Origin: Raja brachyura
Lineage: Eukaryota
Length of the DNA: 64,000 nt
Assembly (NCBI GenBank): GCA_963514005.1
Contig: OY740788.1
Coordinates: 16,926,001-16,990,000, forward strand
Direction of reading: 5' to 3'
Both the position numbers and the translations under genes were made by a program. The first letter of the stretch is position 1, and each line of letters starts with the position of its first letter. The notes under the pieces are model-generated. The model was not told where the DNA came from. It ran no database searches and saw only the letters and a program-made list of their open reading frames with translations. Below, piece by piece: positions 14,080 through 64,000 of the stretch.

Positions 14080-15497
14080 CAGATTCAGATTCAGATTCAA
14101 TTTTAATTGTCATTGTCAGTGTACAGTACAGAGACAACGAAATGCATTTAGCATCTCCCTGGAAGAGTGACACAGCAAATGATTTGGATAAATAACAATA
14201 AGTGTCCGGGGGGGGGGGGGGGGGGGGGGGGGTGATTGGCAGTCACCGAGGTACGTTGTTGAGTAGCGTGACAGTCGCCGGAAAGAAGCTGTTCCTGGAC
14301 CTGCTGGTTCGGCAACGGAGAGACCTGTAGCGCCTCCCGGATGGTAGGAGGGTAAACAGTCCATGGTTGGGGTGAGAGAGGTCCTTGGCGATGCTGAGCG
14401 CCCTCCGCAGACAACGCTTGCTTTGGACAGACTCAATGGAGGGGAGCGAGGAACCGGTGATGCGTTGGGCAATTTTCACCACCCTCTGCAATGCCTTCCG
14501 GTCGGAGACAGAGCAGTTGCCATACCAAACTGTGATGCAGTTGGTAAGAATGCTCTCGATGGTGCAGCGGTAGAAGTTCACCAGGATCTGAGGAGACAGA
14601 TGGACCTTCTTCAGTCTCCTCAGGAAGAAGAGACGCTGGTGAGCCTTCTTGATCAGAGTTGAGGTATTGTGGGTCCAAGAGAGGTCGTCGGAGAGGTTGA
14701 CTCCCAGGAACCTGAAGCTAGAAACACGTTCCACCTCCGTACCGTTAATGTGGATGGGGGTGTGCGTGCCGCCCCTGGACTTCCTGAAGTCTACAATGAG
14801 CTCCTTGGTCTTCTTGGAGTTAAGGGCCAGGTTGTTGTCAGCGCACCATGCTGCTAAGTGCTGGACCTCCTCCCTGTAGGCCGACTCATCGTTGTTGCTG
14901 ATGAGGCCAATCACCGTTGTATCATCTGCATACTTGATGATGGTGTTAGTACCATGTACAGGTGTGCAGTCATAGGTGAAGAGGGAGTAGAGGAGGGGGC
15001 TCAGCACACAGCCCTGTGGAACGCCGGTGTTCAGGGTGAGGGTTGAAGAGGTGTGCTTGTCTAACCTAACAGACTGGGGTCTGTTGGTTAGAAAGTCCAG
15101 TATCCAGTTGCAGAGGGAAGGAGCGATGCACAGATTACCGAGTTTGGCGATCAATTTTGATGGTATAATGGTGTTGAATGCTGAGCTGTAATCGATGAAC
15201 AGCATTCTTACGTAAGTGTCTCTGTTGTCGAGGTGAGAGAGGGCGGAGTGAAGTGCCGTTGAGATGGCATCCTCCGTACTCCTGTTCTTGCGGTAGGCAA
15301 ACTGATAGGGATCCAGTGTGGGGGGTAGGCAGCTTTTGAGGTGTGCCAGGACCAGCCTCTCGAAGCACTTGGTGATGATGGGGGTAAGCGCAACTGGGCG
15401 GAAGTCGTTGAGGCTTGCCGCAGTGGAGTGTTTTGGCACTGGCACGATGGAGGTGGTTTTAAGGCACGTGGGGACAACTGCCTGGGCAAGTGACAGG
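14080..15497 (-). mobile_element. Rex1/Babar-type non-LTR retrotransposon, 5'-truncated, young
   Basis: Open RT frame, 3' tail (TGAATC)3, and a possible short TSD (T)CCAT on both sides. Confidence 0.9.
14243..15497 (-). CDS. Reverse transcriptase (C-terminal part of LINE ORF; no native start in window)
   Basis: Uninterrupted ~418 codons: [51 protein letters not shown]. The ORF-track N-terminus (15498-15553) is flanking DNA. Confidence 0.9.
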
Positions 15498-15635
15498 TCC
15501 ATATGCTCATCTATCCCCATATTTCCCCTTTCATCCCTCTTTCCCATTGCCACTGTCCAATTCCATCCATGTCCCTCTGTTCTGTTTTATATTTCACACT
15601 TTTGTCTACTTTTCACCTTCAGCCTTTGTCAGTTA

Positions 15636-19782: not shown

Positions 19783-22700
19783 CATGGAAAAATACCCCCA
19801 GGGGTGCCCGAGAGGGGGGGAGGATGAGCACCTCAATTTGATGGATCAAAGGCTAACGACTAATGGCAATGGACAACTGACTATGAGTATAAAATGCAGA
19901 CGTGGAAAGGTCTGCAAGAACAGCTGAGGCCTGAAGATTCACCAGACCCGGATAAACTGTTTGGAGGGGAGGGAGAGGGAGTGTCACATCGCACAGGTAT
20001 TTTACCTGGTGAGATGCAGGAGGAGCGGGCCCGGATGCACCCCATAGAGCCCAAAGCCTCCAAGTGACGCAACTAGTCCCTCAGAACAGACCTCCAGAGA
20101 AGGTTCGAGTGAAATGGCCACAGGCCTGCAAGACGGCAGTCTGGCATCAGAGGACGTCGACAATGTGCAAGAAGCAACTGTGAAGGGAGACGTGGATCGA
20201 AGGCTGCGGACGATGACGACAATCATCATCAGCCTAGCTGTGGAAAGGTTTGGAGCAGTGGAGAAGAAGCCGGCCAGAACACCTTTCACCTTGAGCCAAC
20301 GAGCAACAAAGATCCACAAGATCCGGCAGGAGCTGAAGTCCCCCAAGAAGCAGTACAAAGAGGCCAGCGAAGAGCAACGTCCCCCCTTGGCTGAGCTGCC
20401 AAACATCTTGAGGAAGAAGCTGATGAACCTCCGTAGAGCTGAGCGGCACCGAAGACGCCGGAAGGAAACCGCCAGGAAGCGAGTATCCTTCTTAGCCAAC
20501 CCCTTCGGCTTCACCAAACAACTGCGAGGGCAGAAGCGCAGTGGGAGTTTGGCTTGCTCTAAGGAGATCGACCGGCACATCCAGACCACCTACAGTGACC
20601 CCGTCAGGCAGCAGGAGCTAGGCCAGTGCAACATCCTGGTAAAACCACCTCCACCCATCAGGGAGTTTGATAGTAGAGAGCCACTCCTAAAAGAGGTCCA
20701 GGACGTTGTGAAGAGAGCAAGATCGGGCTCAGCCCCTGGCCCAAGCAGAGTCCCCTACAGGGTCTACAAGAACTGCCCCTTGTTACTGAAACAGCTGTGG
20801 AAGATCCATAAAGTCATCTGGAGGAGTGGGAAGGTGGCGATTCACTGAAGGAGTCTGGATCCCAAAGGAAGAAGATTCCAAGAAGATCCATCAGTTCAGG
20901 ATCATCTCCTTGCTAAGCGTTGAAGGCAAGATCTTCTTCAGCATAGAGGCGGGGCGGCTAACCAACTTCCACTCCAGCAATGGCTACATCGACAGCTCAG
21001 TGCAAAAGGGAGGCTTATATGGAGTGCCGGGGTGTCTAGAGCACACGCGAGTGGTGACCCAGCTCATCAGAGAAGCCAGAGAGAGAACAAGGGAGACCTG
21101 ATGGTGCTCTGGCTTGACCTGGCCAACGCCTATGGCACCATCCCGCACAAGCTGATCCAGACAGTCATGGCCAAGCATCATATGCCGGGCCAAGTGGCAG
21201 ATCTCATCCTGGACTATTACAACCAGTTCAGCATGAGAGTCTCATCAGGATCAGTAACATCAGAGTGGCACAGACTGGAGGTTGGGATCCATAGGCTGTA
21301 CCATCTCTGTGATCCTTTTTGCCTTGGCGATGAACATGATTGTCAAGTCTGCTGAGCCAGAGTGCCGGGGCCCACGGACCACGTCAGGATTGCGCCAACC
21401 ACCGATCAGAGTCTTCATGGACGACATGACTGTCACCACTGAGTCAGTACCAGGAGGCAGGTGGATCCTGCAGGGATTGGAGAAACTGATTGGATGGGCA
21501 AGGATGAAGTTTAAGCCAGGAAAATCAATGTGACTGGTGCTGAAGAAGGGCAAAGTCATGGACAGGTTCCACTTCAGCATCGAAGGGACACCAATCCCAA
21601 CTGTCTCCGAAAGGCCAGTGAAGAGTCTTGGCAAGGTGTTTAACAGCAGCCTGAAGGATAAAGCATCAGTCCAGGCAACCTGTCACGAGCTGGAGTGCGG
21701 GTTGAGAGAGGTGGACCAACCGGGGCTTCCCAGCAAGTTCAAGACATGGATTTACCAGCATGGTATCCTGCCAAGGATACTCAGGCCACTGCTTGTTTAC
21801 GAAGTCCCAACTCCATCGTAGAGAGATTGGAGAGGAAAGTCAGCAGCTTTCTCAGGGGGTGGCTGCGACTGCCCAGGAGCCTTAGCAGCATCGCCCTTTC
21901 CGGAAATAACACCAAGCTCCAGCTGCCCCTGAAGTCCCTGGAGGAGGAGTTTAAGGTGACTCGGGCCAGAGAGGTGATGTTGTACAGGGACTCCAGCGAC
22001 CCCAAGGAGGCTCAGGCAGGGGTGGAGGTGAAAACTGAGAGGAAGTGGAGAGCCGGCGAGCCGTACTGCAAGTCGAAGTCTCGGATACGCCACAGAGTCC
22101 TGGTGGGAGCAGTGACTTGGTAAGAACTGGAACTGGAGTATCTTCCAAACACCCCAGTTTGACAAGGCTAAGGGGTAGGAGAGGCGCAGGCTGGTCCAGG
22201 AAGAAGTGAGGGCAGCGGTGGAGGAGGAGAGATGTACCAGAGCAGTTGGCTTGAGGCAGCACGGGGGCTGGACAAGGTGGGAGCAGGCCATGGACCGAAA
22301 AGTCACATGGACTGAGCTCTGGCAGGCTGAACCACAGAGCATCAAGTCCCTGGTCCAGGCAGTGTACGATGTCCTGCCCAGCCCATCGAACCTCTTCATC
22401 TGGGGCAAAGCGGAATCTCCAGATTGCCTGCAATGCTCAGGCAAGGGGACATTGGAACACATCCTGAGCTGCTGTCCAAACGCTCTTGGGCAGGGCCGGT
22501 ACACCTGGCGTCACGACCAGGTTCTCAAACACATTGCAGAAGCCATCAGCATGGGAATCAGCAGCTGCAGATGAGCACGGCCCACTACCCAAATGATCAT
22601 CTTCGTGAAGGCCGGAGTGCAGCTGCCAAGAATCACAGCTGCCAGGAATCCGTCAGGAATCCCGGTGACTGCGCAGGACTTGCAGCTTTCTGTGGATCTG

Positions 22701-23093
22701 GTGAAACAGCTGACGTTCCCACAGTGCATTGCGACAACCACCGTGAGGCCTCACATCCTCCTGGTCTCAGAGGCGACCAAAAACATCGGCTTGTTGGAAC
22801 TGATGGTGCCGTGGGAGGACCGTCTGGAGGAGGTCCACGAGAGGAAGAAGACCAAGTGCGAAGAGCTGGTCATAGACTGCCGTAAGCAGCGCTGGAAGGC
22901 AAGGTGTATGTCTATCGAGGTTGGCTGCAGAGGTTTTGCAGGGCAGTCGCTCTACAATGCCTTGAGTGCACTGGGCATCAACGGAAGGGAGAGGAGAAGA
23001 GCCATCAAGAACACCACAAAGGCAGCGGAGAAAGCCTCGAGATGGCTCTGGATCAGGAGAGGAGGTCCATGGGGAGGAGCGAATGCAACCTGA
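19783..23093 (+). pseudogene. Hero-type polyprotein (zinc finger - RT - CCHC knuckle - RLE endonuclease), frameshifted
   Basis: KC..GKVCKN..GLKIHQTR (about 19891-19960), SAPGPS.VPYRVYK, FRIISLLSVEGK, WLDLANAYGTIPH, GCTISVILF, FMDD, CLQCSGKGTLEHILSCC, RHDQV, RPHILL...ELMVPWE, IEVGCRGF. Multiple frameshifts and stops. Confidence 0.9.
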
Positions 23094-29525: not shown

Positions 29526-30512
29526 TTACGGAGCAGCTCTCAGCACAGCTTCCGCAAACGTTGCGGGGTTAGCCACCAGTTTATTGTAGAACCTTTGAAA
29601 CGTAGATTCATTGGCCCATCCCGCGGTAGCGAGGACATGATCCATGGGCACCTCCATGGCCCTCGCCGCTTAAGTGGATGCAGCCCTGGTAGAATGAGAT
29701 TTTAAAACGTTAGTATCTATACCCGCTGCATCCAGTACTTCCCTGAGCCACCTTGCGATAGTTGAACCAGTCACCCGGTGATGTGGCTTCTTATGGCTGA
29801 TAAATAGCCCCTGTTCCATCTTCCGAATGGCACTTGTATTTTTGATATAGTAGCGAAGATGGGTGACTATGCAGAGGGTGGCGTCTGTGGGATACGCCCG
29901 GAATTCCAACTGCAGCCCTAGAGCACCTTGCCTATGCTGCTTAAGTAATTCTTCGACGAAGAAGGTTACTTTTTGAGGGGTCGAGACCATTCTGTCGAGG
30001 CGCAGTTTCTGTAAAGTCTGCACCCGCTGTGCCGTTGTCAGTGCCATCAGCATTACCACTTTCATGGTAAGTGGTAACTCTGTCATGGGAGACCAGCTTC
30101 TTAATAGGGTCAATACCACCCCAACGTCCCATGTGATGTTATATCTGGGTTGTGGAGGGTTGGTATTAAACACTCCCCTCATGAATTTGAACACCAGCTG
30201 ATTTGACCCCACACCGATGTTGAGGTATGAGGACAGCGCACTCCTGGCGCTATTGATAGCACTGTAGCTGAGACCCTCATTGTAATGAAGGCCCGCCAGG
30301 AATTCCAGGATGTCAGGGATCGTAGCAGAGTTGTACGTTGTAGAAGTCTGTGCGCAGTATGATTCCCATTTTCTGATCTGTGTGAGATACTGCTTTCTTG
30401 TTGATACTCTGCATGATGCGGTGATGAGATCCTTGGCCCTAGGTGAGATCCCAGCCTCCAGAAGTGGTCTTCTTAGAACCTGCAAGCCAACAGGTTTAAG
30501 TGACGATGGCAC
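29526..30512 (-). pseudogene. DIRS tyrosine recombinase (one in-frame stop at 29670)
   Basis: LSYSAINSARSALS, TAQRVQ (R), KSHSTRAA (H-x-x-R), then after the stop ATAGWANESTFQRFYNK (W, catalytic Y). Confidence 0.92.
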
Positions 30513-32207
30513 GGGTGAATTTCCCCAGTAACGTGGTTCGTAACCAATTTAGGGCGTTTTGAAATTTGCACCCATGGGCTTTTGACCATCTGGAGGACCA
30601 CCGGGTACCATGGTTGCGTAGGCCAGTCGGGTATAATCAGTATGCCTGAAGCAGAATCCAATTTGATTTTCTGCAATACCCGACTGATGAGGCAGAATGG
30701 GGGAAATGCATAGCAGAACCATTTCCCCCAATGGAGAGAAAATGCATCCATTGCTACTGCTCGCAGGGTCTGGTTCCCAAGACACATATGTTGGTATCTG
30801 ATGGTTCAACCTAGACGCAAAAAGGTCAATATCTGGTGTACCGAATTTAGCTATTATTTCAGCAAATATTTGCGGGTTCAACATCCATTCGATGTTATCA
30901 TTGAATATACGTGACCTGGTATCCGCCACTGTATTAAGCTTCCCTGGAAGATAGGTTGCTGAGATCCAAATATTCCAGTGCCAAATTGTGTTGACTAAAT
31001 CATCACAAAATACTGACCTGATACCACCCATATGATTTATGTAAGCTACCACCGTGGTATTATCTATTTGAAGACGGACATGTATATGATGTAAACTTGT
31101 GCAATATGCCCATAGCCCATAGAAAACACCTAGCATCTCCAAATAGTTTATCCCTTGTGACTGTAAAAGCGTAAATTCATGAGCATCCCATCTGCCACCA
31201 CAACTGGACACAGTGTCTGTCAGTCACTCCTCACCCTTGGGCGCTTGCGTCGGTTTGTACCACAACTGATGGGCTGGAGACAATGGGTTTATAACAGTCA
31301 CTAATATTGTTAGTCCACCATCTTAGCTCAATTTTTGCCTTTATCGGCATGGGCCTGTCAAAATGTCCAGCATTTGATTTTAATGCTGACATTTTTGCTC
31401 TTTGTACATTTTGATAATGTAGTGGCCCAAATTGTGTAGCAGGAAATGTAGCTACGATTTTCCCAATTACCTTAGCAGTTTGTCGAATAGTCAGTACAGC
31501 AGCGCAAGCAAGGCTGTTACAAGTTTCTTGAATATCAGCTACTTTCCCAGCTGGGATAGTGACAATCATCTGATTCGTGTTAATAGTGAATCCCAAATAA
31601 TCCATGACCTGTGATGGATTGAACTTAGATTTGTCTGGATGGATGACAAATCCCAACTCCTCAAATATTGATATAGTAGCTGCAACTGCCAGCTGAGCCA
31701 ATTCTAAAGTTTCCCCTACTATTTATATATCATCCAAATACGCCATGACGATATGATTTTGTCTCCTGAGGCACGCCAAAATAGGTTTAACGATTTTTGT
31801 AAACAGCCGAGGTGCTGTTGTAATCCCATTGGGTAACGCTTTGTATTGCCATAACTGATCCTTCCAGCCAAATTTCAAGAACTTCCTGTGATGTGTTATG
31901 ATAGGACTGTATAGTATGCATCTTTCAAATCAATGCAGGCCATAAAGCACCCTCTGCTAACTAATTGTTTAGCAGTTTCAAACGTCTCCATTTTGAAATG
32001 GATGTATTGTACAAAAGTATTCAAATGGGTTAGGTCAATGATAATACGACAACCACCATCTTTTTTAGGTCTTGTAAAGATGTTGGACACAAACTCTAAG
32101 GGCTCATGTGTCGTTCTCTCTATCACCCCTTTGGTTTCTAATCGTAAAATTTCTGCATGTCCTGTCTCCATCTCTTTTTGAGAAAGCGCAAACTTGCGAT
32201 GAGGCAC
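30473..32207 (-). pseudogene. DIRS RT - RNase H - adenine-methyltransferase-like polyprotein, frameshifted
   Basis: PKKDGGCRIIIDL, IDLKDAYY, MAYLDD (31730-31747), QTDAS, INYLEM, IDNTTVVAYINHMGG, N.VADTRSR, DIDLFASRLN, DAF..W...YAFPPF. Confidence 0.93.
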
Positions 32208-32265
32208 ATGCTGCGTGGGGGGGAAGTTTGCCTTTAATAAACTCTATTACATAACCCTGAATACT

Positions 32266-33843
32266 TTAACCTTTATAGAAATCTTTAACCTGCTTCGACA
32301 GGTCCTCCCCAAACAGCTGTGTTGGTGGTGGTGTGGTGGAGGTGCGACACAACCCAGCAAACTTTGGGTTGAGGTTGGGCTGAATGGAGCTCTTTTGAAA
32401 ACAATTAATCTCAAACTGTGTGTTACACAGGAGGGCTAATGCATCTTGTTGTTCCTCTGACACATCTGCTCCATCCAGGGCCCTAGCGAACGCCGTTATG
32501 CCCGAAGTGAGTAAATTCAGGATCTTCTGGAGCTTGCCCTCCTGTGCCCTGGTGTTACTACTGATGTTCCCCCAAATCGGCAGGTTGACTTTAGGCACGT
32601 TGAGGGATACACAGTTCGCTGGGGCCTTATATTTTTCCAATGTCTCAGCGACGACATTGTCTTGTAGCTGGTGAGTCGTTAGGTAATTAATACTAGCCGC
32701 TAGTTTGGGATGCAGTGGTTCCCCTACACTGGTTGGCTTCCCAAACTTAGCTACAGCCTCCAGCATGTCTTCAGAGTCTGGAACAGCAGGCTGGTCTTCT
32801 ACCGCTACATCTTCAAAATCACCCATACGCTGACTTCATCTGCTAGCAATAGACGAGGGTGAGACTGAAAGCGGCGGCCTGATCTTACTCCCAGACTGCA
32901 GGGACTCCCGCTCTTGCCGTTCCAGGTCCCTTTGATAGAGCACCTCCACCATCTGCTCCATTCTAGCCATGCGACCGCCGCCGCTACATACGGACGACAG
33001 GTCGACTTCCCCAGGCCCTGCTGAGTCGCTGGGGCTTCTGCCGGTAGATCGCATCTCCACGAGATGCGCTGGCAGGTACTCATCAACACCCGCTCCTGCG
33101 GGGCTGAACGACCTTTGCACGGACAACCTGCTAGTCCACCGTCTTTCGGACCTCAGCGGCATTTTTGCCTGATGGGAAGGCAGAGGAAACGAGTCGGAAC
33201 CGGTCCCCAATACCGGCTCCGCGGTCCTTGCAGGCATGCCATCACCCTTACCCACACGGGTCTGTGATGGCGCATAGCTGGCTTTACCCATAGCAACGGG
33301 GATGCCTAGCCATACTCTGCTGCCACCGGTCTGCGCTCCGGCAGCCTGTTCCGGTGCAGTGCCGGTACCTCCTGCTCCTGCAGGGTATCCTGACGCTCCA
33401 GCAACACGGCCGCCAGCCTGCGACCTCGCAGGTTTCCCCTGCGGCATGTCAACGCCCACCGCAGCAGCGGGGCTCGACTTCAATATGGCTTTTCCCCGGG
33501 TCTGCCCTTGAGGGACCTGTAAAGTAAAAGAGGTACTTGCCGTGCGAGGCACCTTACTCTGTACCTTTTTCCCACCAGCCCTGACTTTGGGCGATGGTGG
33601 GGTGAAGTCAGGGTCTCCTTCCCCCTGCTCCTGTGCGGAATCCCCTCCAAGTGGAAACGGAGGTGAGTCGGCCCCTACCGACTCCATAGGGCCCGACATC
33701 CGCATCTTTTTCCCCGGTCGTACAGGTGCTGCCAGTGCTTCGGTCAGCTCCGAGGAAATTCGCCGCGGTTCGCGGCTCTTGGAAAGTTTTCTTTTTTCCT
33801 CCATCGTTTCTGTAACACAAATGCTACAGAACAACCAGCTCAA
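32266..33843 (-). pseudogene. DIRS gag-like ORF1 (split by a frameshift near 32830)
   Basis: Long open frames at the ORF1 position. GEPLHPKLAASINYLT..YKAPANCVSLNVPKVN..IWG and LFGEDLSKQVK are conserved in copy 3 (56457-56765). Confidence 0.8.
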
Positions 33844-34544
33844 GGTTAATAAAACTTACCAGGAGCCGTCTTTTGAAGGAGCTGTTGGGGAAGCGCACTC
33901 CCCCCCCAGCTTGCCGTTAGAAAATGCGAGCGACGATATGTCGCGCATGCGTGCTGGCGGAGTCTTCACGAAGTCACTCACGTGACTCCGAAGTGCTTTT
34001 TCTGCAAGTTTAGCAACATCACATTGGTGGCTCTCATATGTTTCAGTAAAATTAGTCAGTAAAACAGGCTTGAGTGCCCTGTTTCTCTCACCAGCATGTC
34101 CTTTGCTTGCTTTGCACTTAAATTAAAATTCCATCATTTAAGCAATACTTGGGTTTCTCTCCATTAGCCTAACTGTGTCCTGCAGTCTTTCATTGCGCAA
34201 ACTGCAATTTGTTGATTTAGTAAATAAGAGATTACACCGCCGACTCATGCAGACCATTATGCACCATTTTCTGTCTGCTGCTTCTATGAGTTTACTGGTA
34301 ATTAAGAGAAGGCAGGACATGATTCTATTGCATTTCATCAGTAATTTTCATGAGACAATCGTTTCAATTTTTGCCACTATCAACTCCTGTCCTGCAGTGC
34401 TCAATGGATGATCAGTCACAAGTTTTCCATAAATATATTATTTTATTTAAAATATCATTTGTAGGACAACAAACATATCCGCTATTCAATACATGATACC
34501 ATATATTAAATACATGGAAATTGGAGGGATCTCATTGAAGCTTA

Positions 34545-36010: not shown

Positions 36011-37594
36011 CTAATTTATATTGGTTCGTGGATATTTCTTTGGTTAATTTATCTACCTCATTATGAATACTTCACACACTGAAACACAGCACTTTCAGTT
36101 GTGTCTAAATATTAGACAGCTTATTATTTTGTTTATAGTAGCCTTAATTCTCCTTATGTCTTTCTCTCTTATTAGCATTTTCCTTTTACCCAAACTTTGT
36201 GTTTGTATGTTGTGTACTTTGCCAACAGAACATGGCCATCCATAACCCAATCACTGCTTCTTTACCTTTTCCTCTTTAACATTCTACGATTGTTCTTCAC
36301 CGGGATTCTCCAAACCCCCCTCCCCCACCTGCTTTATTTAGTTTAAAGCCCTGCCTTCCTCTCTAGTTACTTGATTCTCGAGAATCCTGATTCCTGCATG
36401 TTCAAGTTCAGAACAACCCTTTCCTCATTATTAATGCCAGTACCTGTGAGTTGCTGCTTCCTCAGCTGAATTTTTGCACGTCGTTTGTTTTCTTTGAAGG
36501 AATCAGAGCTGTTCCCACCAGCCCCTTTTCCCCACTTATTTCCCTGCAACCTTTTCTCTCTTGCATGCCCATCAACTTCCCCTGCTTCCGCAAACTATCT
36601 ACACTCAGGGCCAACTTGCAGTAACCAATCAATCAAGCAATACATCTTTGGGATAAGAATAAGTTGAAGTAATAGGACAAAATGTCGACAGCACACTATT
36701 CTTCATCCATCTGCTGATTTGCAATGAAGAGCGACTTTATTCTGGAGTAAGCGACCCAAGACTCCATACAGTCCCTTGTGTGTCAAGAGTGTTGATTATA
36801 CTCACTCCAGCTTCAGGATTTGGGAGTGCTGTTTCTGAAGGTAGATGAATTATATTGCTGATTTCATCATTTAAACATATCAAAGTGCAAAATGTAGTAC
36901 TACATTCTATAAGAAATTTTCTATTGGCAGGAGACATGACAAGAGGCCAGACCCATTGTGTGTGTGTTGCTCGAAAATATGAAGAAAATCGTACTTTGGT
37001 ACAAGTGACTTTTAAACTTATGCGTTATTGATGTTGTGATGAAATGATTGTTTTTCAAAGAGTAGTAAAAATAAATTTATGTAAAGCTGTATGAAATGTT
37101 GGAGTATGGTGATGAAACAATATAAATGTCAAGGTATTAGAATTAATATGTAGTTATAATCCTGTTTAATAAAACGTGGTGCAGATCTATAATTAAGGAT
37201 TAATGCAGCAAAATTACAGAAACTTGGCCCTTTGAGACGTACTATTTCTAAAGCACGTGATTACATTTGAATCTCGCATTACGTACAGGAAAAGCAATGT
37301 AATCCCATTTTTCATGAACTGTTATTTCACTCCTAGAAAATTTATAATTATCCAGTACTGAGATGATGTCCAAGAGATAGCAAGTGAAAATATACCACCA
37401 TCTATATTGTAATTGGCATTGATTTTATTAGCCAAGTATGAAAACAAAACAAGGATGTAAATCATACAAGGAATTTGATTTACCGTATATTGGGTAGCCT
37501 CCTCACAAGATGATCATATTCCCTGAAAACTTGATTTTTATATTAGTCACAAAATGGCAAACTACTTTATTATCCTACTCCCCCCCCCCCCCCC

Positions 37595-37998
37595 CACCCC
37601 CCACCCTGGTCAAATCCCTCCCTACCCATGTCCAAGACACCTCACAAGCTCTTCATCTCCTCCATGACGTGCGTTTTCCAGGCCCCCACGCCCTCATCTT
37701 CACCATGGATGTCCTGTCACTCTACACCTCCATCCCCCACCGTGAGGGTTTGAAAGCCCTCTGCTTCTTCCTCGACCACAGAACCAACCAATCCCCGTCT
37801 ACCAATACTCTCCTCCGCCTAGCGGAGCTGGTCCTTACCCTCAACAACTCTTCCTTTAACTCCTCCCATTTCCTCCAAATCGAAGGCGTAACTATGGGCA
37901 CATGCATGGGCCCCAGCTATGCCTGCTTCTTTGTAGGGTACGTCGAACAATCCTTGTTCGAAGGGTACCGTGGCCCTATCCCCAAACTCTACCTCCGT
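37595..37998 (+). pseudogene. Penelope-like reverse transcriptase fragment
   Basis: LVKSLPTHVQDT...IFTMDVLSLYTSIPH...LVLTLNN..FN..HFLQIEGVTMGTCMGPSYA; open frame. Confidence 0.88.
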
Positions 37999-38415
37999 GG
38001 TTATGGGGTAAAAGGGGCAAATTAATAATAATATAATATCAAAGGGGTTGTTCGCATATGTGTGAGGGGGTAGTTAGTGTGTGTGACGCCGCATGCCGGC
38101 ACTCTCCCCGGCAACCACAGTTTGGGGGACCAGACCCAACGGGTCTGCACTTGGTCTAATATACTTTTAAAACTGTGTGTGTGAGTGTGTGTGTGTGTGC
38201 GCGCGGGCATGTGTGATTTTGCACGTAAACGTATCTCCTCGATAACCAGATGCAAAAACACAGAGATTTTTACCATTTCGGTAGGGACTTTCCTTATGAG
38301 TTCGGTAATGCACCCCTTGGTCAATTATTACCGCAGATTTTGAATAAAATTGATCACAAAACTCAAACAAAACTCAATTTTTAAAATCTAAACTGCTCTC
38401 ACCAGCTGCTGAATC
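37999..38415 (+). mobile_element. Helitron 3' segment joined directly to a Helitron 5' segment
   Basis: 37999-38158 matches the reverse complement of 18191-18360 and ends CAGACCC-AAC-GGGTCTG-CACTTGGTCTA. From 38155 (TCTAATATACTTTTAAAACTGTGTG...) it resembles the 5' end of the 18191-19244 element. Confidence 0.7.
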
Positions 38416-50485: not shown

Positions 50486-50639
50486 CCGAACATCGCCGCA
50501 CCACCGACCATCCACCCACCGGTACTTCCCACGCTTCGCCTGCTGACCCGGACTCCACTCCTCACGGTCTTCCACCATTGATTCCACTGACCCTCGCCAC
50601 TCCACCGCCCTCCAGCAGCCCGCAGCCGTCGCCTTACCT

Positions 50640-51150
50640 GAACTCAGCACCGGGCCTGAAGCTTCCATGCTGCAGACTCCCACTCCACTGGGTTTGACTG
50701 CGCTGGGTCCTAGTGCCAGTCCCCCCAACCCTGGTAACATCACTGGCTGTTCCACTGGGTCTTCCCCATCCCCCTCAAACCATGTGATCCCAGCTCATCC
50801 CCACCCACACTACAGTCCTCATACCCCCCTTCCCCCTGACCACCCACCACCCCCCCACCAGACATCGCCTCGGCCTCAGTCCACTCACCTGCCTTCCTCC
50901 AGCCCCAACTCCCATTCTTGTCATGTGTTCACCATCCCCCCCGACCTCCCCCTCTCAGATACCGAACGGTCTGTCCTCAGCAGAGGCCTCACCTTTGTCC
51001 CCTTCTATCCCCACCTCAATGAGTTCCGCACCCACCGCGGTTTGGAGCTCTTCTTCCATCACCTCCGCCTCGCAACATTCTTCCATGGGAAGGAGTCCTC
51101 GCCCCCCATTGATGATCCCTTTTCCCGTCTCCAATGGACCCCCTCCTTTC
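50640..51150 (+). mobile_element. Penelope-like element N-terminal ORF fragment
   Basis: VFTIPPDLPLSDTERSVLSRGLTFVP..PHLNEF...ELFF..LRL..FF matches the PLE pre-RT L(S)xxExxxLxxGLxF motif. Confidence 0.8.
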
Positions 51151-52827
51151 GAGCCCCCCGCAATCAGCGCTATGGGCGGCCCGATGCTCAGGCCCTCTTG
51201 CCGGGATGATGGAACTCCGACGTCGGAATGGAAGAACACCCTCAGTGGCTTGAACTTCCGAATCGGCCACTTCCTACCGGATACCGTGGCCTCCGAAGTC
51301 CAGAGGCTGAGCTGGGCGGAGATTCAAGCTGGCGGACCTCGGCAAAGGGATCCCAGGGCTCCGCGATGTTGAAATCACGCGACCCGAGGCTGGGAGCTCC
51401 ACATACCACAGCTGATATTGAAGCAGCAGGCCCACCACTCCGGAGCTTCAAACAGCGATCCAGGTAAGGCATCGCTCGCTCCGCGGTGAATCCAATATGT
51501 ATTTTAAAACCAACTGTTTAATGACATATACAGTATAATCTAAACGTGTCACACTGTCACTGTCAGGTAGTCATGGTCCTCTAGTCATGGGTGTGGGGGA
51601 TTGGGGGGGGGGGGGGGGGGGCTCACAAGTGAAATAGCCTAGGACCTCTCTTCATCTAAATCCTGCCCTGACTGTGGTGTATCTTTTCTGTCTGACCATG
51701 CTGCAGACCATTTCTGCTTGGAAATGCAGCACATCTTGAATCCTAAACTCTAAGCCGCATAGAGGGTAACGTATCAATCGAGTGATGTTTATCTTCACTT
51801 TAATGCTTTCTGTCTCTTGCATCACCTGGAAAAGTTTCACTTTATGGTGTGGTGAGCTTGTGGTGAACAGAAGGGGTGTAACGTAAAAGATAAAAAGGGT
51901 GATTTAAAAAGAAAGGTTCACATCATGGGATGATGAGCACATGGACAAGTGGTTCAGATATAAACACACTGTAATACCTACAGTTTCCAAGAGACTGCTG
52001 GCGACAGAAATCTGCAACAGCTGCTTCAGTTACGGTAGACAGTCTTCAACCTTGGATGCAACTCAGCTAAACTGCTTCCTTTACTTGTGTTACTCTGATC
52101 TGGGGTTAAGGAGTAATTGTGCAATATGAGTGTCATGCAATGTGCTTCATTGATGTTTCTTAGTTGTATATCTGGCATTGTGTGCGAGCATTAAGTTGGG
52201 AGCCTTGTGACTTGTGAAAAAAAACTGAGAGTGTGGTGAATTGTATAAATATCAGATATGATTCATGATCAGACAAGGGTTTGTGATTAGGAGGTTAGCA
52301 TTGGCAGTCTGGTGCCTGAGGCTAAAGGTACCTTTGGTCAATTAGTTGGTAGAAGTTGCATACAATGGCTTTATTTAATGAACAAGAATGACCTTTTTGC
52401 ACTCCACATCCGACTCTTCAGAAGTTGCACTGGCTGGCCCAGCCATCTCTCCCACCCCAATGAATGTCTCACCAGGATATATTTTGATCTTGTGCATGAA
52501 AATATAGGATAACTCTCATCATTTTTAGTCTACCAGTGCTGCTGTGTTCCTGAAACTTCAATTCCACACTTAAATTATCACCCAAAGGCAATAGCTACAT
52601 CTCCTTGGGCATGCAGGCTGGCTTTAGCGGATCCTGATCATTCATGAAAGTGGTTTTCGACCTGAAGCAGTAGACTGCTCAACAGCTTACTTAGTTTAGA
52701 TGGCACATAACCTTGTAAATAAGTGAACAGCATGAATTTGTTGTTCTGCCTATATCTGATTTTATCAAATGGAAATGTTCTGGTGCAAGTTTTTATTGTC
52801 TATTTGATTGAGCATCTGTCATCCATT

Positions 52828-55690: not shown

Positions 55691-57159
55691 TTAAAAAAAA
55701 GGTTACCAGTCAGCATTTTATTGGTATTGTACTAAAGCAAGATTTTACTTTGGAGTCACGTGAGTGACCACGTGTAGAAGCCCGCCAGCCCGCATGTGCA
55801 CCAATACGCCTAACGCATGGCGCATGACTGGCTGGGAGGAGCGTCGCACCTCCAGCGGTAAGTTTCAAAAGCCTGCAGGTAAGTTGTAAACTTATTCTCT
55901 GGTTGTATTTTTGGTTGGGGGAAAATCTCTTTTACAGAGTTTTCTGTGGATAAGAATGTCCAGGGTGAAATCCAGATGGGCCGTGGCGAAACCGGCTACG
56001 GAGGACCGCGGGAGTGCGGGTAGCTGGCGGACGTCGGGTTCGCCACCCGAGTCGCTAACAGTGCGGTCAGTGACTTCAGACTTTGGCAACCCCGAAAGGG
56101 GGTAAAGCCAAACGGAGTCTGAGAGGTCTGTGGACTCGGCCGAGTCAGGCCAGGAAGGTTCCCCTCCGACAAACATGGGTAGCTCCAGATGGAGCACGTC
56201 ATGGAGAGGATGCTCCATCATGATATGCGCCGTGAAAAGGAAACATATCAGCACAGGTCTCCTCGGGGGCCTGTGGCAGCACCTGGTCCAGGGCTGCATA
56301 ATGACTCCCACTCTGAGGAGCGGAGCATACGGGGTCAGTATTGGACCGAGTCCGATTTCGGAGGTATGTCTGGGGAACATACCGGGATGCGCGACATACG
56401 TGAGGTTCAGGATGCCTGCCACAGCATCAAGGTTCGCGATACCCTCACAAACAGGGGAGCCGTTGCAGGAAGAGCTAGCTGCCAGCATAAACTACCTCAC
56501 GTCACACCAATTGCAGGAACAGATGATGGTGGAAACAACCACAAAGTACCATACACCTATAAATTGTGCATCCCTGAAAGTGCCGGCAGTGAACAGCTCT
56601 ATCTGGGGTTACATTGGAAGGGGCATTAATGCCCAAGAAATGGAACTCCAAAGAATTGCAGGATGCCCTGGCATTGATGTGTATGCACACTTGAAATTGA
56701 AGGCCAGCAATATCGAACCGCCGAATCTTCTGTTCGGGGAAGATCTACCCAAACAGGTAAAAAACCTGGACAGAGGTCTTTTAGGCCAAGGCCTAAACCG
56801 GCCCTAATGGAAAATGCACAATCCACGCACCCCAGCCTAACCCTCCAAACCTCGAGGGCAGAAATAGAACCCGCATCAGGAGCCTTTGTGCCTACCATAG
56901 GACCACCAGTAACCATGGAGGTAGGTGGGTCTGGTTCTTTCCGGAACATGGGGTGTGTGGACCAGTTACAAGTTTGTGGTAGATTACACTTGTTTTTGCA
57001 TGAATGGCAATGGGTGACATCAGATCCATTTATACTGCACAGTATACAAGGGTTCCAAATTGAATTTCTTCCCAAATTCATTGCCACCCACACAACATAC
57101 CCCAAGCTGGGCATTTGTTCATTCCAAACAAGAAGGTTTGGATATACAAGCAATAAATC

Positions 57160-58640
57160 ACAAAAGAAAGATGGAGGATGTCGGATCATCCTTGATTTAT
57201 CACAACTAACTCTTATGTGCAGAAAAGACATTTCAAAATGGAAAACTTTGTTACTGCCAAACAACTGATTTCCAAAGGATGCTTTATGGCATGCATCGAT
57301 CTCAAAGATGCATACTATTTGGTGCCCATTCACAGGGATCACCGGAGATATTTGAAATTTAGCTGGATGGGGCAACTGTGGCAGTTTAAAGCGTTGCCTA
57401 TGGGTCAACGTCAGCCCAGGTTATTTACCAAGTTATTAAAGCCGGTGCTTAGGCCGCTTAGAGCTCAAAAACACATTGTTATGACATATTTGGATGATTT
57501 TCTCATCATAGGAAAAACACTGAAACTGTCTAAATTAGCTGTTTTCAGCCACAAAACTCATATTTAAGACCTAGAGTCATTAGATATTTGGGGTTTTCCA
57601 TTAACTCTATTAATATGTCTGTGACTCTGCCTTGGGGCAAGAGATTAGAATCAATAGAAGCCTGTAACAGCCTTTTGTTATGACACAGCCATCTATTCAA
57701 CAGGTGACTATTCTAATTGGCAAATTAGTGGCTGTTTTTTCTGGCTGCACAATTTGGTCCTTTGCATTATCAGAATTTACAACGTGCACAGGAGCATGCA
57801 CTCAAATACCATTTAGGTCATTTTAACAGACCTATGCTATTACCAGCTGAAGCTATATCAGAATTACAATGGTGGACGACCAATATTCGGCATTTCTCCA
57901 GTAACATTTTGGTCAGTAAAACTCCAGTTATATTACTAACTGATGCTAGTGCTTAAGGATGAAGAGCTACTTATACCATCCCTAGTTGCAGTGGCAGATG
58001 GGATGTGCATGAGTTATCAAATTCTTCAGCTACATGGTATCAACTACCTGGAGATGCTGGGGGCATTTTATTGGTTAAAATCTTATTGTGGGAATATGCA
58101 TACTCTGCATGTTCTAACTACAGATTGATAACACTACGGCGGTGGCATATATTAATCACATGGGTGGAATCAAGTCAGTATCCTGTGATAATTTAGCTAA
58201 CCTTATTTGGCACTGGTGTATGGTGAAAAGCATTTGGATTTCAGCTACCTACTTGCCGGGTAGGTTTAACATGGTGGTGGACACCAGGTCACGCAAACTC
58301 AATGACAATGCAGAATGGATGTTGGATCACAAAAGTATTTAACTGCATTGTTTGCTCGGTATGGAACACCGGAGGGGCAGTGGCGATGGATGCATTCTCG
58401 CTACACTGGGGAGGAATGTGCTTTTATGCCTTTCCACCAATTTGCCTCATCAGTCGGGTCTTGCAAAAAATCCAGCAAGATTCCGCTTCAGGCATTTTGA
58501 TAGTGCCTGACTGGTCTACGCAGCCATGGTTCCCGCTGATGTTGGGAATGATAATAGAACCTTATATGGTTATTTCAAAAACACAGAAATGTGCTGGTTC
58601 ATCCCGAGACTCGGGAAGCCCACCCTCTGCATAATAGAAT
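57160..58640 (+). pseudogene. DIRS RT - RNase H - methyltransferase-like relic
   Basis: KKDGGCRIILDL, IDLKDAYYLVPI, TYLDD, LTDAS, INYLEM, AYINHMGG, YAFPPI, VPDWSTQPWF; many frameshifts. Confidence 0.9.
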
Positions 58641-58649
58641 CGATTTAGT

Positions 58650-59633
58650 GATTTGAAGACTCTAAAAACACTTGTCCTGAGGCTCGGACTGTCAGATTGA
58701 ACCATGGACGTGATCACTGCAGCTTGCAGAGATAGCATCAAGAAGCAGTACATTTCCTACATCAGGAGATGGGAAGTGTTTTGTTTAAATTCTAATATAA
58801 TGTATAAATACGGCACGAATAATTGACATTTTGGAGTTTCTTTCAAAATTATTCTTTGACAAAGATTAAGATATAGTGCCATTGACTGTGCCAAAAGTGC
58901 CTTGTCAGCATATTGGCTGCTGGGATTGGGACACCACTCTGTCGGGTCTCACCCTCTGATATCCAGATTTATCGAGGGTATCTTTAATACAAACCGTCCC
59001 AGGCCCAGGTACACGGAACATGGGATGTTAACATTGTGTTAACACTACTTCGCCAGTGGGCTCCAGCTACATCCTTATCGTTGGCCTGGCTCACGTATAA
59101 GGTAGTTATGCTCATGGCGCTAGTTTCAGCACAACGCTCCCAGTCGTTGCATAAGCTACGGCTGGACAGAATGGTTATATCTAACTACAAAATAACGTTC
59201 TATGTAATGAGCTAATTAAACATAGCAGACCGGGGGTGTTCGGTCTAAAGCTGGAATTCTGGCATATCCTATGGACCATAGATTGTGTGTTGTCACACAT
59301 ATTCATCAATATTTTAAGTCTACAAAGAACCTTAGAGGCACTGAGCTGGCAATGTTCATTAGCCACACAAAACCACACAAGAGGGTTTCAGTACAGACCA
59401 TCTCCAGATGGTTAAGACATGTATTGGCTTGTGCAGGAGTGAACTCTGATGTTTTTAAATCTCATTCTATCAGGGCTGCAACAACATCAGCAGCGAGGTT
59501 CATGGGGGTTCCGCTGGACCGCATCCTAGCGACAGCAGGATGGTCGAATGAGCAGACTTTCCAAACCTTTTATAATAAACTGATTGCCAGGCCGGGTCCG
59601 TTTGCTAACTCAATTTTAAGTTCTGTTCAATAA
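58650..59633 (+). pseudogene. DIRS tyrosine recombinase relic
   Basis: MLMALVSAQR, KSHSIRAATTS, ATAGWSNEQTFQTFYNK. Confidence 0.9.
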
Positions 59634-60589
59634 TTTCCTTTCCCGGATGTAGAGATCGCTATTATTATTATCATTTGCATCAGCATGTTTTAAATCTATC
59701 TCATGTCTGAATGTGTTATCTTTTCAATGCAGTGTGTGGCATGGACTCGTGTTCGCGGCATGAAATCATAGAGCTTTGAAATCTTCACGTAGTCACTCAC
59801 GTGACTCCAAAGTAAAATAGGAAGATTAAACGAGAACTTACCAGTTTGAAGTTTGATCTTTATTTTATGAGGCGATATGATGAGGGATTACATGCCCTCC
59901 ACTCCCAAACCTTCTCAAAAAAGTCAGCTGGTAGTTCTACTTTCTCGAATCTTCCTATAATCAGTTTAGCAATTGATTTCACACTGCTGCTTTGAAGGTT
60001 GATGCGCATGCGGGCTGGCGGGCTTCTTCACGTAATCCCTCATTGTAACTCCTCATAAAATAAAGATCAAACTTCAAACTGGTAATTTCTCATTTAATCT
60101 TCCTATTATGGCAGGTAGATTTTTCCCTCAGGATGCTGCATGCTTCCCTCTCTGCAGGGCCTAAGGCAGGTTTTCTCTGCTGTCATTAGCAGGCAGCCAG
60201 AAGTTAAAATCTTTCCTATCAGGTAACAATAGAAAACATAAATAAGGAAAATATAAACAAATTGGCCGGAGAAACCTGAAGCACATGGAAACACATATTA
60301 AAATGGTGCTAGTAGGAACTCGCCCCGTTTTCTTGTAGAGCCCGCATGGAATAGCGAACATAATCACAGTTTCGGATGCCAACATTGTGAATTCAGAGAT
60401 TTTTAGCACATTTACACACAAAAAACAAATCTAATTGTTTTAGATGTCCAGAAGGAGCACACTTTTGGCTGCACCATCTCCAATGTGGCAGAAGCTCTTC
60501 AACATTGGTTGCATCATTGGTTCCAGTGGCAGTCCTAAATTGGTTTGCCCTCTGGGAATGAGGATGTGGAAGTGGAGCTGGACCTCCAA

Positions 60590-60726
60590 AGGTGTAGGAA
60601 GGAACTGCGGATGCTGGTTGAAACCGAAGATAGAAACAAACTGCTGGGGTAACTCAGCGGGACAGGCAGCATCTCTGGAGATAAGGAATGGGTAACGTTT
60701 CTGGTTGAAACCCTTCTTCTTCAGAA
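60590..60726 (-). mobile_element. Penelope-like terminal-repeat fragment with degenerate hammerhead
   Basis: Minus strand CTGAAGAAGAAGGGTTTCAACCAGAAACGTTACCCATTCCTTATCTCCAGAGATGCTGCCTGTCCCGCTGAGTTAC. Confidence 0.8.
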
Positions 60727-61821
60727 TTAGACCTCCAAAGGGATCATTGAAATGGTTAATGGTCATGATTCTTCACCACTACAAAAACAGAAGGCTATAC
60801 TGCTAACATTGGACATATGTTGGGGAGGAATCTATGTTGGTTGTCAGTGACAGTCTCCTGACAGCAGCTCAGGCAAAAAGCAGCCACTTCAACTTACATT
60901 CAAGCATACCCTCGAGTCTCTGTCATCAAGGCTTTATTTTCCAGATCAAAAACCATATGAATGGTTTCTGAAGCGTGCATGAGTGCTTCACTGTAAAAGT
61001 GTGCTGCATATTGATTAATGTCACAACTGTGCACCCAGCAGCCTTTGTACGGAAACACATCATGTGCATGAAAAATTATAGAAGATTGAGTTTTTCATCT
61101 TAGTTTCAGCTTAAATTATATCATACAACACATTTAAAAAATGGGTGCCACGTTGATTTTCTAGACGTGTATTTGTTTCTTTATCCTTCAATATCTATGA
61201 TTACAAAATGAAACTTGCAGGGCCTAGGTTTTAATTTATTGAACATTCTGAAATCCATAGTTTAATTCTAAAAGTGGGTTAGGTTTGAAAACCTCCTTAA
61301 AACTTAGGGAATTTTAATGTAATGCAGGGCTTTTTGGAGATCTGGAAAGTTTTGTGGAATTTGTATGACTTTTTCTTTAATTACTGGCTGTCAATTACAT
61401 TCCAATGCCGAATGTGACAGAGAAAAGCCAGCCAGTGCAATTCTTGATGGGAGGCAGCCAATAAACCTGGTCTGGTTTCTTTTGCTGCACTCAGTAAACT
61501 ATGGTGTCAAGATAGTGTCTGACAATTCTGTTTATGGTGCATAGGACAGAGGCCAGGGGTAGAATATTTATTAGAATATTGAGTTTAAAATCTGCAAGCT
61601 TTCTCTGTAATGCTTAATCCCCCTGCATTCTTTACCGTTCAGGAACCATGTTGTGGCCCCAATAATATAAAGCAGGTGTGTTGAATGAACCATGGAATGC
61701 ATTGTGAGCTTGTCTGAAAGATTGTTATCTGCACCGGACCAAGACGACTTCAGTGCTCTGCAACCTATTGCAGGAGCAACTCTATTTATTGCAATTAAAA
61801 CATTCTATTGTAATTGAAATC

Positions 61822-61961
61822 TTTTCCTCCTTGCATATGGCGTGCACAGCCTAAAGTTGTCGGACAACTTTTTCTATTTGATCTTATTTGATTGTGCACG
61901 CCGGGTTGATTGCATTCGTCGAAACAGGGCGGACCACGCGAAGGTTGCAATCTTCCACCCC
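61822..61961 (-). mobile_element. 140-bp SINE-like retro-insertion headed by an HDV-like ribozyme
   Basis: Perfect 10-bp TSD AATTGAAATC (61812-21 and 61962-71); CpG-rich insert in AT-rich flanks; purine-rich 3' tail GCAAGGAGGAAAA. Confidence 0.85.
61908..61961 (-). ncRNA. Minimal HDV-like self-cleaving ribozyme (54 nt)
   Basis: GGGGUGG(P1) AA GAUUGCA(P2) ACC(P3) UUCGCGU(L3) GGU(P3') CCGCCCU(P1') G UUUCGA(minimal P4 linker) CGAA(J4/2, catalytic C) UGCAAUC(P2'). All helices pair, with the G1.U wobble at the cleavage site. Confidence 0.85.
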
Positions 61962-62724
61962 AATTGAAATCAATGGACCATGTGCACTTCCACTGAATCC
62001 AAACGTTCCATGATGCTTTTAGTACGAGAGAGATTATTCTTCAGCTGGGATTGTGCAAATCGATCCGTTTAATGATGACTGTAGTAAAATTAATTACATG
62101 TTTACTGTACAACTATAAATTTAATAACAAATTAAAAATCATATATTTCTTCCAATAGTAAAACTTGTTTTATTTGAGGATGTTGGTTATTATTGGTTAT
62201 TAGGTTGTCCTGCAATAGCTGAGAATTGACACAACGCTGCTAAATTAAACCTATTTATTGTAAGTAACTTGCGAGTTTCTGCATATTTAACGAACCTTCA
62301 AAATATTAACTCTAGTTCATTATAGTTCCCAAGAATGTCTAATGAAGACTAAGAGTTGAATGCTTCAAGATTAAGAAATGGGCCTCCACTAGTTGCTAAT
62401 TTTTCAGAGTTAAAGTAATTGGTGGTGGCATTTGAGAGAAGATGAGGTGGTGTGAACTTGCTTTCTAAAGTGGTTGAAACCCCGACAATATTTAAAATTT
62501 GTTTGGATATGTGTTTGAATAACTGCTTTGCTGGGCTGTGAATCGATTACTGGAAGATGGGAATAAGTTGTATAGCTCTTTGACTAACAAAGATACTGGG
62601 CTGAACTCCTCTCCAGTGCCATACATATTTTATAATGTTGTTATTTATCAGTCTATACTATGCAGGCACACCCCTATGCAGGCTACTTGTGTAAACACGC
62701 ACTTATGTAAACAATCCTTTAAGC

Positions 62725-63090
62725 CCACTGATACCCATGTGGTCTCCGTGTCAGAGTACCCTCCTGGTTTCCGCATTGGAGCTTCCCCTGTGGTCTCCGT
62801 GTCAGATTTCCCCTGTGGTCTCTGGGTCGGAATTCTCCCATGGTTCCTTGGCGGAGCTCCCCCTGTGGTGCCCTCATCAGAGCTCCCCCATGGTCCTCAC
62901 ATTGGAGCTCCCTCATGGTCCCCACATCAGAGCTCCCCCATGGTCCCCACATCGGAGCTCCCCCATGGTCCCCACGTCGGAGTTACCCCATGGTCCGCAC
63001 GTCGGAGTTACCCCATGGTCCGTACGTCGGAGCTCCCCCGTGGTCCCCACATTGGAGCTCCACCCATGGTCCCCACATCAGAGCTTCCCC
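62725..63090. repeat. 25-bp minisatellite (GGAGCTCCCCCATGGTCCCCACATC), about 14 units
   Basis: Direct inspection; units become more diverged toward the left end. Confidence 0.92.
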
Positions 63091-64000
63091 GTTTGAAGTT
63101 TGATCTTTAGTATATGAGGAGTTACGATGAGCGATTACGTGAAGAAGGCCGTCAACCCGCATGCGCTTCAATCTTCAAAGCAGCGGTGTGAAATCACAGA
63201 TAACAGTTGTTGAACTAACATAGTAAGATTATAGATGACTAGAACTACCGGATGATCTTTATGATATGAGGGTGAGAGCGGTGGGCACGTAATCACTCAT
63301 CGTAACACCCCATAAAATAAAGATCAAACTTCAAACTGGTAAGTTCTCGTTTAATCTTACTATTTTACTTCGGAGTCACGTGAGTGACTACGTGAAGACC
63401 TTGAAGCTCTGTGATTTCATGCCGGATACGAGTCCAGGCATCATACAGTGCATCAATTGACCATGGATGAGTGAAAAAGATTAATGCATTCAGCCATGAT
63501 ATAGTTTGCTAAAAATGCGGATGCTTTAATCATCAAGGAAAAATAATAGTGACCCCTCCCATCGCGGGGAAAAATATGAAACAAAACATAAATGGAATTT
63601 GGCAATTACCCCCGGTCTGGCAATGGGTTATTATAAAATATTTGAAAGTTCGTTCGTTTGACCATCCTGCAGCTGCTAATATGTGGTCCAGTGGAACGTA
63701 CATGACCCTTGCTGCTAATGTAGTCGCAGCCCTAGTGGAGTGAGATAGAAAATATTAGTATCTACTCCTGCATACGCCAAAACCCGTTTGACCACCTAGA
63801 GATGGTTGGGATAGATACCTTTTATGAGGATTTTAGTAACTAACAAACATTGTTAGTGCAGAGCCTCTAAGACTCTTGGTGACCTTGACGTATTGTTGTA
63901 CATGAGTGACTACAGACAACCAAAGGTCCATGGGGTATGCCATGAGAAAATAGTTTGGGACCTGACGCCCCTGGTCTGCTCTGCTTAACTCCATCATAAA
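63091..64000 (-). mobile_element. DIRS1-type retrotransposon, copy 4 (3' portion; continues off the window; extreme right terminus missing)
   Basis: Right extension/ITR 63091-63166, ICR about 63286-63397, YR relic (HSTRAA, AAAGWS). Closely similar to copy 1, positions 3195-4070. Confidence 0.93.

Follow-up and report, generated by a model that had tools for sequence, protein, structure and literature searches.

A dispersed ~135-nt retroelement with a predicted minimal HDV-like ribozyme head, formed by internal deletion of a Vingi-like LINE

Introduction

The concept of a short retroelement headed by the ribozyme of its LINE is not new, and the class is known from NARTc, RIME, and the R2 SIDEs. 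NARTc and RIME, which are L1Tc/ingi derivatives, have no ORF and keep the 5' ribozyme head of the LINE (Pr77), with predicted cleavage at +1 (PMC3185411, PMC4035085). The R2 SIDEs of Drosophila join a 5' ribozyme to the 3' end of the parent and show TPRT-type variation at their junctions (PMC3414825), and bipartite non-autonomous LINEs of Vingi and RTE, namely the Vingi-1_EE derivatives, Bov-A, and RTE-N2_Lch, combine the 5' and 3' ends of a LINE without a small-RNA head (PMC5786205). Vingi is a sister clade of Ingi with a compact single ORF that holds an APE endonuclease and an RT and no RNase H, and the templates of Vingi-based gene-insertion tools carry both UTRs (PMC13708176). Minimal P4-less HDV-like/theta ribozymes are nested double pseudoknots with the catalytic C in J4/2 and cleavage at G1 (PMC10879173).

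The insert described here, which lies in a 64,000-nt stretch of DNA (the window), resembles the elements above in its two LINE-derived ends and its missing ORF, and resembles the minimal ribozymes in its predicted fold. We hold with good confidence that it is a ~135-nt non-autonomous element, which a Vingi-like LINE of 3.1 kb gave rise to by losing its interior, and that this element is likely to cut itself at G1 and to be copied by the LINE protein.

Results

The insert consists of two LINE ends between target-site repeats

The sequence AATTGAAATC was located on both sides of the insert, as the perfect 10-bp TSD that the first-pass annotation had described around 140 bp (61822-61961). The element is read on the minus strand, its first base is G1 (61961), and its predicted catalytic C44 lies at 61918. 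The parts are listed in Table 1.

Table 1. Parts of the insert and its flanking repeats, in window positions and in the order of the element
Feature	Position	Strand	Remark
TSD, 5' copy	61962..61971	-	10 bp; last base directly precedes G1
Predicted minimal (P4-less) HDV-like ribozyme	61908..61961	-	54 nt
LINE 5'-end segment, element nt 1-77	61885..61961	-	69/77 positions shared with LINE head L369
5' arm of the 10-bp end-to-end stem	61893..61902	-	LINE 5' UTR; begins 6 nt past P2
A-rich short linker where the LINE ends were joined, nt 78-94	61868..61884	-	
Inner hairpin, nt 92-108	61854..61870	-	spans the junction; absent from LINE 3' end
LINE 3'-end segment	61833..61867	-	last ORF codons, stop codon, and 18-nt 3' UTR
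3' arm of the 10-bp stem	61839..61848	-	LINE 3' UTR, 2 nt past the stop codon
Decayed (AAG)n tail	61822..61832	-	
TSD, 3' copy	61812..61821	-	10 bp

Counted from 61961 on the minus strand, the 10-bp stem comprises nt 60-69/114-123 and the inner hairpin nt 92-98/102-108, and the 140-mer folds with z = -2.3. The linker at the junction is a partial repeat of the preceding sequence and differs in length among copies. The inner hairpin likely arose after the deletion, because the 3' end of the LINE lacks it.

The claim that the insert has no tRNA, 5S, or 7SL head holds. ARAGORN found no tRNA in 61500-62300, an Rfam scan of 60000-64000 returned no match, Rfam gave nothing relevant on a typical copy, and the head derives from the 5' end of the LINE itself. 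No recognised host exon was found near the insert. The HDV descriptor marked a single site in the 64-kb window, whereas the 2.55 Mb of its 40 shuffled versions, scanned on both strands, contained none. If the element were instead a conventional Pol III SINE with a small-RNA head, whose ribozyme-like fold arose by chance, this would accord with the lack of a run of four T in the head and with weak words in it that, by eye, we take to be A-box- and B-box-like; against the LINE-derived head, the missing tRNA, and the empty descriptor control, we consider such a SINE extremely improbable.

No empty site was seen, and in organism F, too, contigs enter the element from either flank. Copies of the family are present in run X1, which is probably DNA of organism A, but this locus is missing there, and runs of organisms B-D showed small shares. 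None of the listed runs with the sequence is an RNA run, which says nothing for or against expression.

The window also contains other elements. A 447-aa open RT frame at 14243-15586 (minus strand), which we take from its motifs to be Rex1/Babar-like, has a near-identical copy at another locus (L164), and a broken Hero/R2-like retrotransposon lies at 20048-23093 (plus strand). Fragments at 29670-33855 (minus strand), 56106-59633 (plus strand), and 63533-63754 (minus strand), with recombinase, RT, and RNase H-like motifs, are presumably DIRS-like, and those at 37498-38025 and 50547-51372 are presumably Penelope-like RT fragments. About 700 bp from the insert, a tandem repeat array (62690-63170) translates into repeating peptides in several frames.

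The head is predicted to fold as a P4-less HDV-like ribozyme

On the same numbering, P1 pairs nt 1-7 with 30-36, P2 pairs nt 10-16 with 48-54, and P3 pairs nt 17-19 with 27-29, while L3 occupies nt 20-26, G37 follows P1, and J4/2 (CGAA) occupies nt 44-47. Only 7 nt separate P1 from J4/2. Every helix of the nested double pseudoknot proposed in the first-pass annotation was found, and a second wobble in P1 (U5.G) can be added to the G1.U wobble. The helices follow the HDV topology in the order P1, P2, P3, P1.1, with 7 bp in P1 and 3 bp in P3. P1.1 is one C-G pair, intact in 32/32 rows, of which one side was fixed by the selection pattern. C44 is present in 29/32 copies, and all core pairs together with C44 are retained in 16/32 aligned copies, which would restrict the suggested role of each copy as a strand-specific transcript cutter to those that keep the core.

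Rfam does not pick up this head. The 81-nt head scores 14.4 bits on HDV_ribozyme (E 2.8, chance level, vs a gathering threshold of 50), and in the Rfam alignments the P4 part of the models is left unmatched by the window head. In ViennaRNA, which cannot fold pseudoknots, P1, the 10-bp stem, and the inner hairpin find support, and neither P2 nor P3 does. The window copy carries a minority L3, with G at position 23 where most copies have A, and this form permits a competing 3-bp pairing. Two subfamilies differ at the free base of J4/2 (CGAA vs CTAA); their copies lie 5.7% and 3.7% from their own majority sequences, figures that the selection biases low. Compensatory changes in P1 and P2, which had been anticipated among copies, do not rise above shuffles (62/500 shuffles reach the score), which is the pattern to be expected of copies that decay from a few masters; apparent covariation is confined to comparisons between families.

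Thousands of copies share a 5' boundary at G1

At least 9,288 exact matches to a 24-nt core pattern are present in the 2.7-Gb genome, and the reversed control gives 0; the count is a lower bound because only exact core matches enter it. The copy sample was drawn from 40 of the first-listed places on contig C1, picked by the core alone, which yielded 41 matches. Their 5' start is a perfect GGGGTGG in 22/41 and has at most one mismatch in 28/41, and 13/41 have 2-4 mismatches across the first 7 nt. A recognisable tail is missing in 10 of the 41. TSDs were found in 21 of the 31 tailed matches, most often of 11-12 bp (14/21), and they end exactly at G1 in 13/21 and within 1 nt of it in 18/21. The swapped-flank control gave no TSD in this sample, and 0 and 4 in two other sets.

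Upstream of G1, 20 bases are unconserved in 91 distinct copies, except for T at -1 in 44/91, which we infer to be a non-templated base. Three DNA runs show the same boundary: each has 10,769-11,108 contigs placed on the element, with loose ends that pile up at 61961/61962 and at the tail. In run X19, the largest 5'-side piles among those listed are at 61961/61962, with 231 and 222 contigs and an agreement of 0.34. The number of core matches and the differing TSDs bear out the earlier view of a multi-copy non-autonomous retroelement. The suggested genome-wide comparison of copies gave both the differing TSDs and, in 28 of the 41 matches, the GGGGTGG starts with at most one mismatch, and the predicted coincidence of the insertion boundary with G1 is seen in the 18 TSDs that end within 1 nt of it and in the unrelated upstream sequence.

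Some copies are rearranged. At two loci (L079 and L086) and in one joint of run X1, the ribozyme core is inverted between the P2 arms, which form an inverted repeat at the DNA level. Runs of similar, closely spaced copies occur at G000:C1:14.79-14.95 Mb and at C13:2.06-3.21 Mb, and they probably reflect segmental or tandem duplication, not new insertion.

A Vingi-like LINE of the same genome has both ends of the element

A pattern made of the head core and the opening codons of the ORF matched 52 times; 9 of these matches were examined, and at 7 of the 9 loci the same head continues into an APE-RT ORF. One of them (L366) is 3.1 kb long and complete from head to tail. Its intact relative P0001, of 1,019 aa, covers it from residue 19 to 1019, with the RT 78% identical. 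P0001 has APE and RT matches, a weak zf-RVT match, and no RNase H match, and the parent LINE has the Vingi architecture of a compact single ORF with APE and RT and without RNase H. We assign it to Vingi on this architecture and on motifs that we assume to be typical of the clade. In the RT tree, the parent and eight sister families form a group separate from RTE and Rex (97/97); the tree included no named Vingi reference, and its row RTE_L164 is a Rex-type insertion, not RTE. None of the seven head-bearing loci is intact, which means that the genome showed no complete mobiliser, and the JGI metagenome contigs gave no relative of P0001.

A search for LINE 3' ends gave 815 candidates, of which 30 were taken. 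The terminal sequence of the element and its tail end 28 of these 30 LINE copies, and the other two stop slightly earlier; TSDs were found in 6/30, each of 11-12 bp. The window copy matches the LINE at 69/77 positions over nt 1-77 and at 36/41 over nt 95-135 (LINE copy L383, with the first tail bases counted in), and an older-type copy (L352) matches it at 77/80 and 38/42, so that identity at the two ends is 88-96%. The element arose by internal deletion of this LINE: its first ~77 nt are joined to its last ~36 nt and tail, and the ORF is lost. The marks of TPRT, a TSD and a simple-repeat tail, are of the same kind in the element and in the parent.

Three other patterns did not lead to the parent. 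An RT-motif pattern gave 186 matches and led to about nine Vingi-like families, none matching the element, and it missed the parent because the parent's motif differs. A LINE-type 3'-end pattern gave 11 matches, all altered copies, and failed because it left room for less shared 3' sequence than the LINE in fact has. Two matches came from a pattern for heads with a long P4, neither of them such a head.

The first-pass annotation had proposed a LINE as the mobiliser, suggested a search for one sharing both ends, and named RTE as a candidate. The 3.1-kb Vingi-like LINE bears out the first part, and the differing 3' ends speak against the RTE assignment. Derivation from, or movement by, an RTE LINE would draw on RTE-A, which ends in (AAG)n and has a 13-bp TSD in one copy, and on the RTE-A/B heads, which contain P2/P3/L3-like sequence with GACGAA before P2. 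However, the RTE 3' termini are unlike that of the element, the RTE P1 is different and starts with C, the RTE heads have a ~96-nt insert, and both ends of the element match the Vingi-like LINE. We therefore regard an RTE source or mobiliser as very improbable, and RTE as the parent, a candidate found via PF20049, is largely refuted as the origin by its 3' end and P1. The head parser returned no fold for RTE-A (2/2), and the RTE-A fold was read by eye.

The two RTE families (L199-L243) have HDV-like heads that open with a C-G pair and contain this ~96-nt insert, and several of their copies are internally deleted to about 300-800 bp. Among the Vingi-like copies, a short copy with its own TSD sits in the ORF start of a full-length parent LINE (L401; G000:C21:44500800-44505200), and two parent copies (L369 and L370) have their 5' part inverted relative to the more 3' part, in a twin-priming-like arrangement.

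The fold is kept in sister families

The heads of five sister families (V1, V2, V4, V5, and V6) parse on the topology of the parent family (V0) with other P1, P2, and P3 sequences. The parse was motif-anchored and succeeded for 13/16 heads, with no fold for L456. All six families have 6-7 of 7 P1 pairs, a full P3, and C-N-A-A in J4/2 (CGAA, CTAA, or CCAA), and the L3 pattern is kept. The segment from P1 to J4/2 is 7 nt in V0 vs 20-48 nt in the sister families; therefore, the lack of P4 is already a trait of the parent LINE. The sister heads score 24-34 bits on the Rfam models vs gathering thresholds of 35-50: on RF02682 the V5 head reaches 34 bits, which is below the cut-off (E 0.015 for 64 kb), and the V6 head 24 bits on the CPEB3 model (cut-off 35; E 0.04-0.05 in 64 kb and 1e-4 in 131 nt). 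The P2 hexamer pair of V6 is the CPEB3 consensus pair, and the majority L3 and the CGAA junction of the element family equal the Rfam CPEB3 consensus (RF00622). This likeness of V6 and of the family to CPEB3 may reflect convergent evolution towards a constrained fold. V4, V5, and V6 have ribozyme-headed short derivatives of their own, about 145-295 nt in length (L451, L455-L457, L467, and L469).

The kept fold bears on how the 5' end is set. Given the same origin, an internal promoter in the LINE head could set it, with the fold secondary, as a cap-like knot or a protein-binding structure, and a promoter start at G1 would yield identical junctions. The Pr77 head of L1Tc/ingi is both an internal promoter and a ribozyme, which also bears on the first-pass proposal that the element needs no promoter. 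Among the SIDER heads, some showed no cleavage although they fold properly (PMC4035085), and P4 is missing from the head of the element. Yet the six families keep the C-N-A-A of J4/2 and the L3 pattern with differing stems, the subfamilies vary precisely at the free J4/2 position, and phage P4-less HDV-like ribozymes do cleave (PMC10879173). We consider a promoter-set 5' end unlikely and self-cleavage at G1 the better reading.

The two ends of Vingi-like LINEs are predicted to pair

The first-pass annotation had proposed the 3' stem as an RT signal. The 10-bp stem and its hairpin are present as described, but the LINE has no such stem within its 3' end, as one arm comes from the LINE 5' UTR and the other from its 3' UTR. 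The same two segments are complementary over 8 bp in the LINE, where they lie 3 kb apart, and one stem pair is broken in 16/32 copies of the element.

With a 60-nt 5' window, the perfect runs in V0, V1, V2, and V5 are 8, 7, 6, and 8 bp (p 0.014, 0.041, 0.116, and 0.006), and those in RTE-A and RTE-B are 6 and 5 bp (p 0.17 and 0.60). Once these results from four families had been seen, a shorter 5' window of 25 nt replaced that of 60 nt, and the V4 heads were taken from short derivatives. Between the 25 nt after P2 and the 26 nt before the tail, the family's own 3' end is the best of eight partners in 6/6 Vingi-like families, with shuffle p of 0.032, 0.004, 0.006, 0.002, 0.004, and 0.002; the p values for RTE are 0.11 and 0.18. 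The margin is small in V2, and for the 3' end of V0 three 5' segments of other families (V2 and RTE) are stronger partners than its own. The pairing of the ends in Vingi-like LINEs is a prediction from these computed matches.

Discussion

The life cycle that we propose would begin with transcription of the element by read-through or from a promoter inside the head. Self-cleavage 5' of G1 would then fix the 5' end, and the stretch just past the ribozyme would pair with the 3' UTR and join the two ends, likely as part of what the LINE protein recognises. The LINE protein would likely copy the RNA into new sites, with TPRT starting from the (AAG)n tail and leaving 11-12-bp TSDs, sometimes with one extra base before G1. 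We infer self-cleavage and reverse transcription by the LINE from the tested ribozymes of R2, L1Tc, and NARTc (PMC3414825, PMC3185411, PMC4035085).

A wider reading, which we put forward only tentatively, is that the RNAs of Vingi-type LINEs are closed units, in which an HDV-like ribozyme would set the 5' end and the adjoining stretch, by pairing with the 3' UTR next to the stop codon, would create the structure that the LINE protein needs. The 135-nt element would be such a unit reduced to its working minimum and would have the smallest ribozyme. If true, this would explain the two-ended derivatives of the clade, an animal genome would contain P4-less ribozymes that are live by the thousands, and Vingi heads would be indicated as the source of the mammalian CPEB3 ribozyme. 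The predicted end pairing in six families offers a testable answer to why few LINE clades give two-ended derivatives, and the panel of diverged Vingi heads allows a test of the CPEB3 ribozyme as a domesticated LINE end. As a natural template of 135 nt, the element shows minimal cis signals, which bears on Vingi-based gene-insertion tools.

The 135-nt family may already be catalogued, and the supplement of PMC5786205 may hold related elements. The available portions of the literature searched, which included PMC6765202, PMC7761336, PMC5753468, PMC4494074, PMC4455052, and PMC3391268, with Repbase and Dfam outside its scope, contained no Vingi ribozyme, no description of this family, no Vingi end pairing, and no P4-less HDV-like head on an animal LINE.

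Compared with the CPEB3 ribozyme (RF00622), P1 and P2 of the element differ, and the element has no score on the CPEB3 model. The R2 SIDE is 529 bp long, rDNA-specific, and rare (PMC3414825), whereas the element is ~135 nt long, dispersed, and abundant. NARTc and RIME have a 77-nt head, whereas the element, with at least 9,288 copies in an animal genome, has a P4-less head of 54 nt whose first pair is G1.U and whose ribozyme is a prediction. Minimal HDV-like ribozymes are reported to be ~99% confined to Caudoviricetes phages (PMC10879173), whereas that of the element is predicted at the 5' end of a LINE in an animal. An HDV-like fold without P4, otherwise described almost exclusively from gut phages, would head both an animal LINE and more than 9,000 dispersed copies, and about half of the sampled copies keep all core pairs intact.
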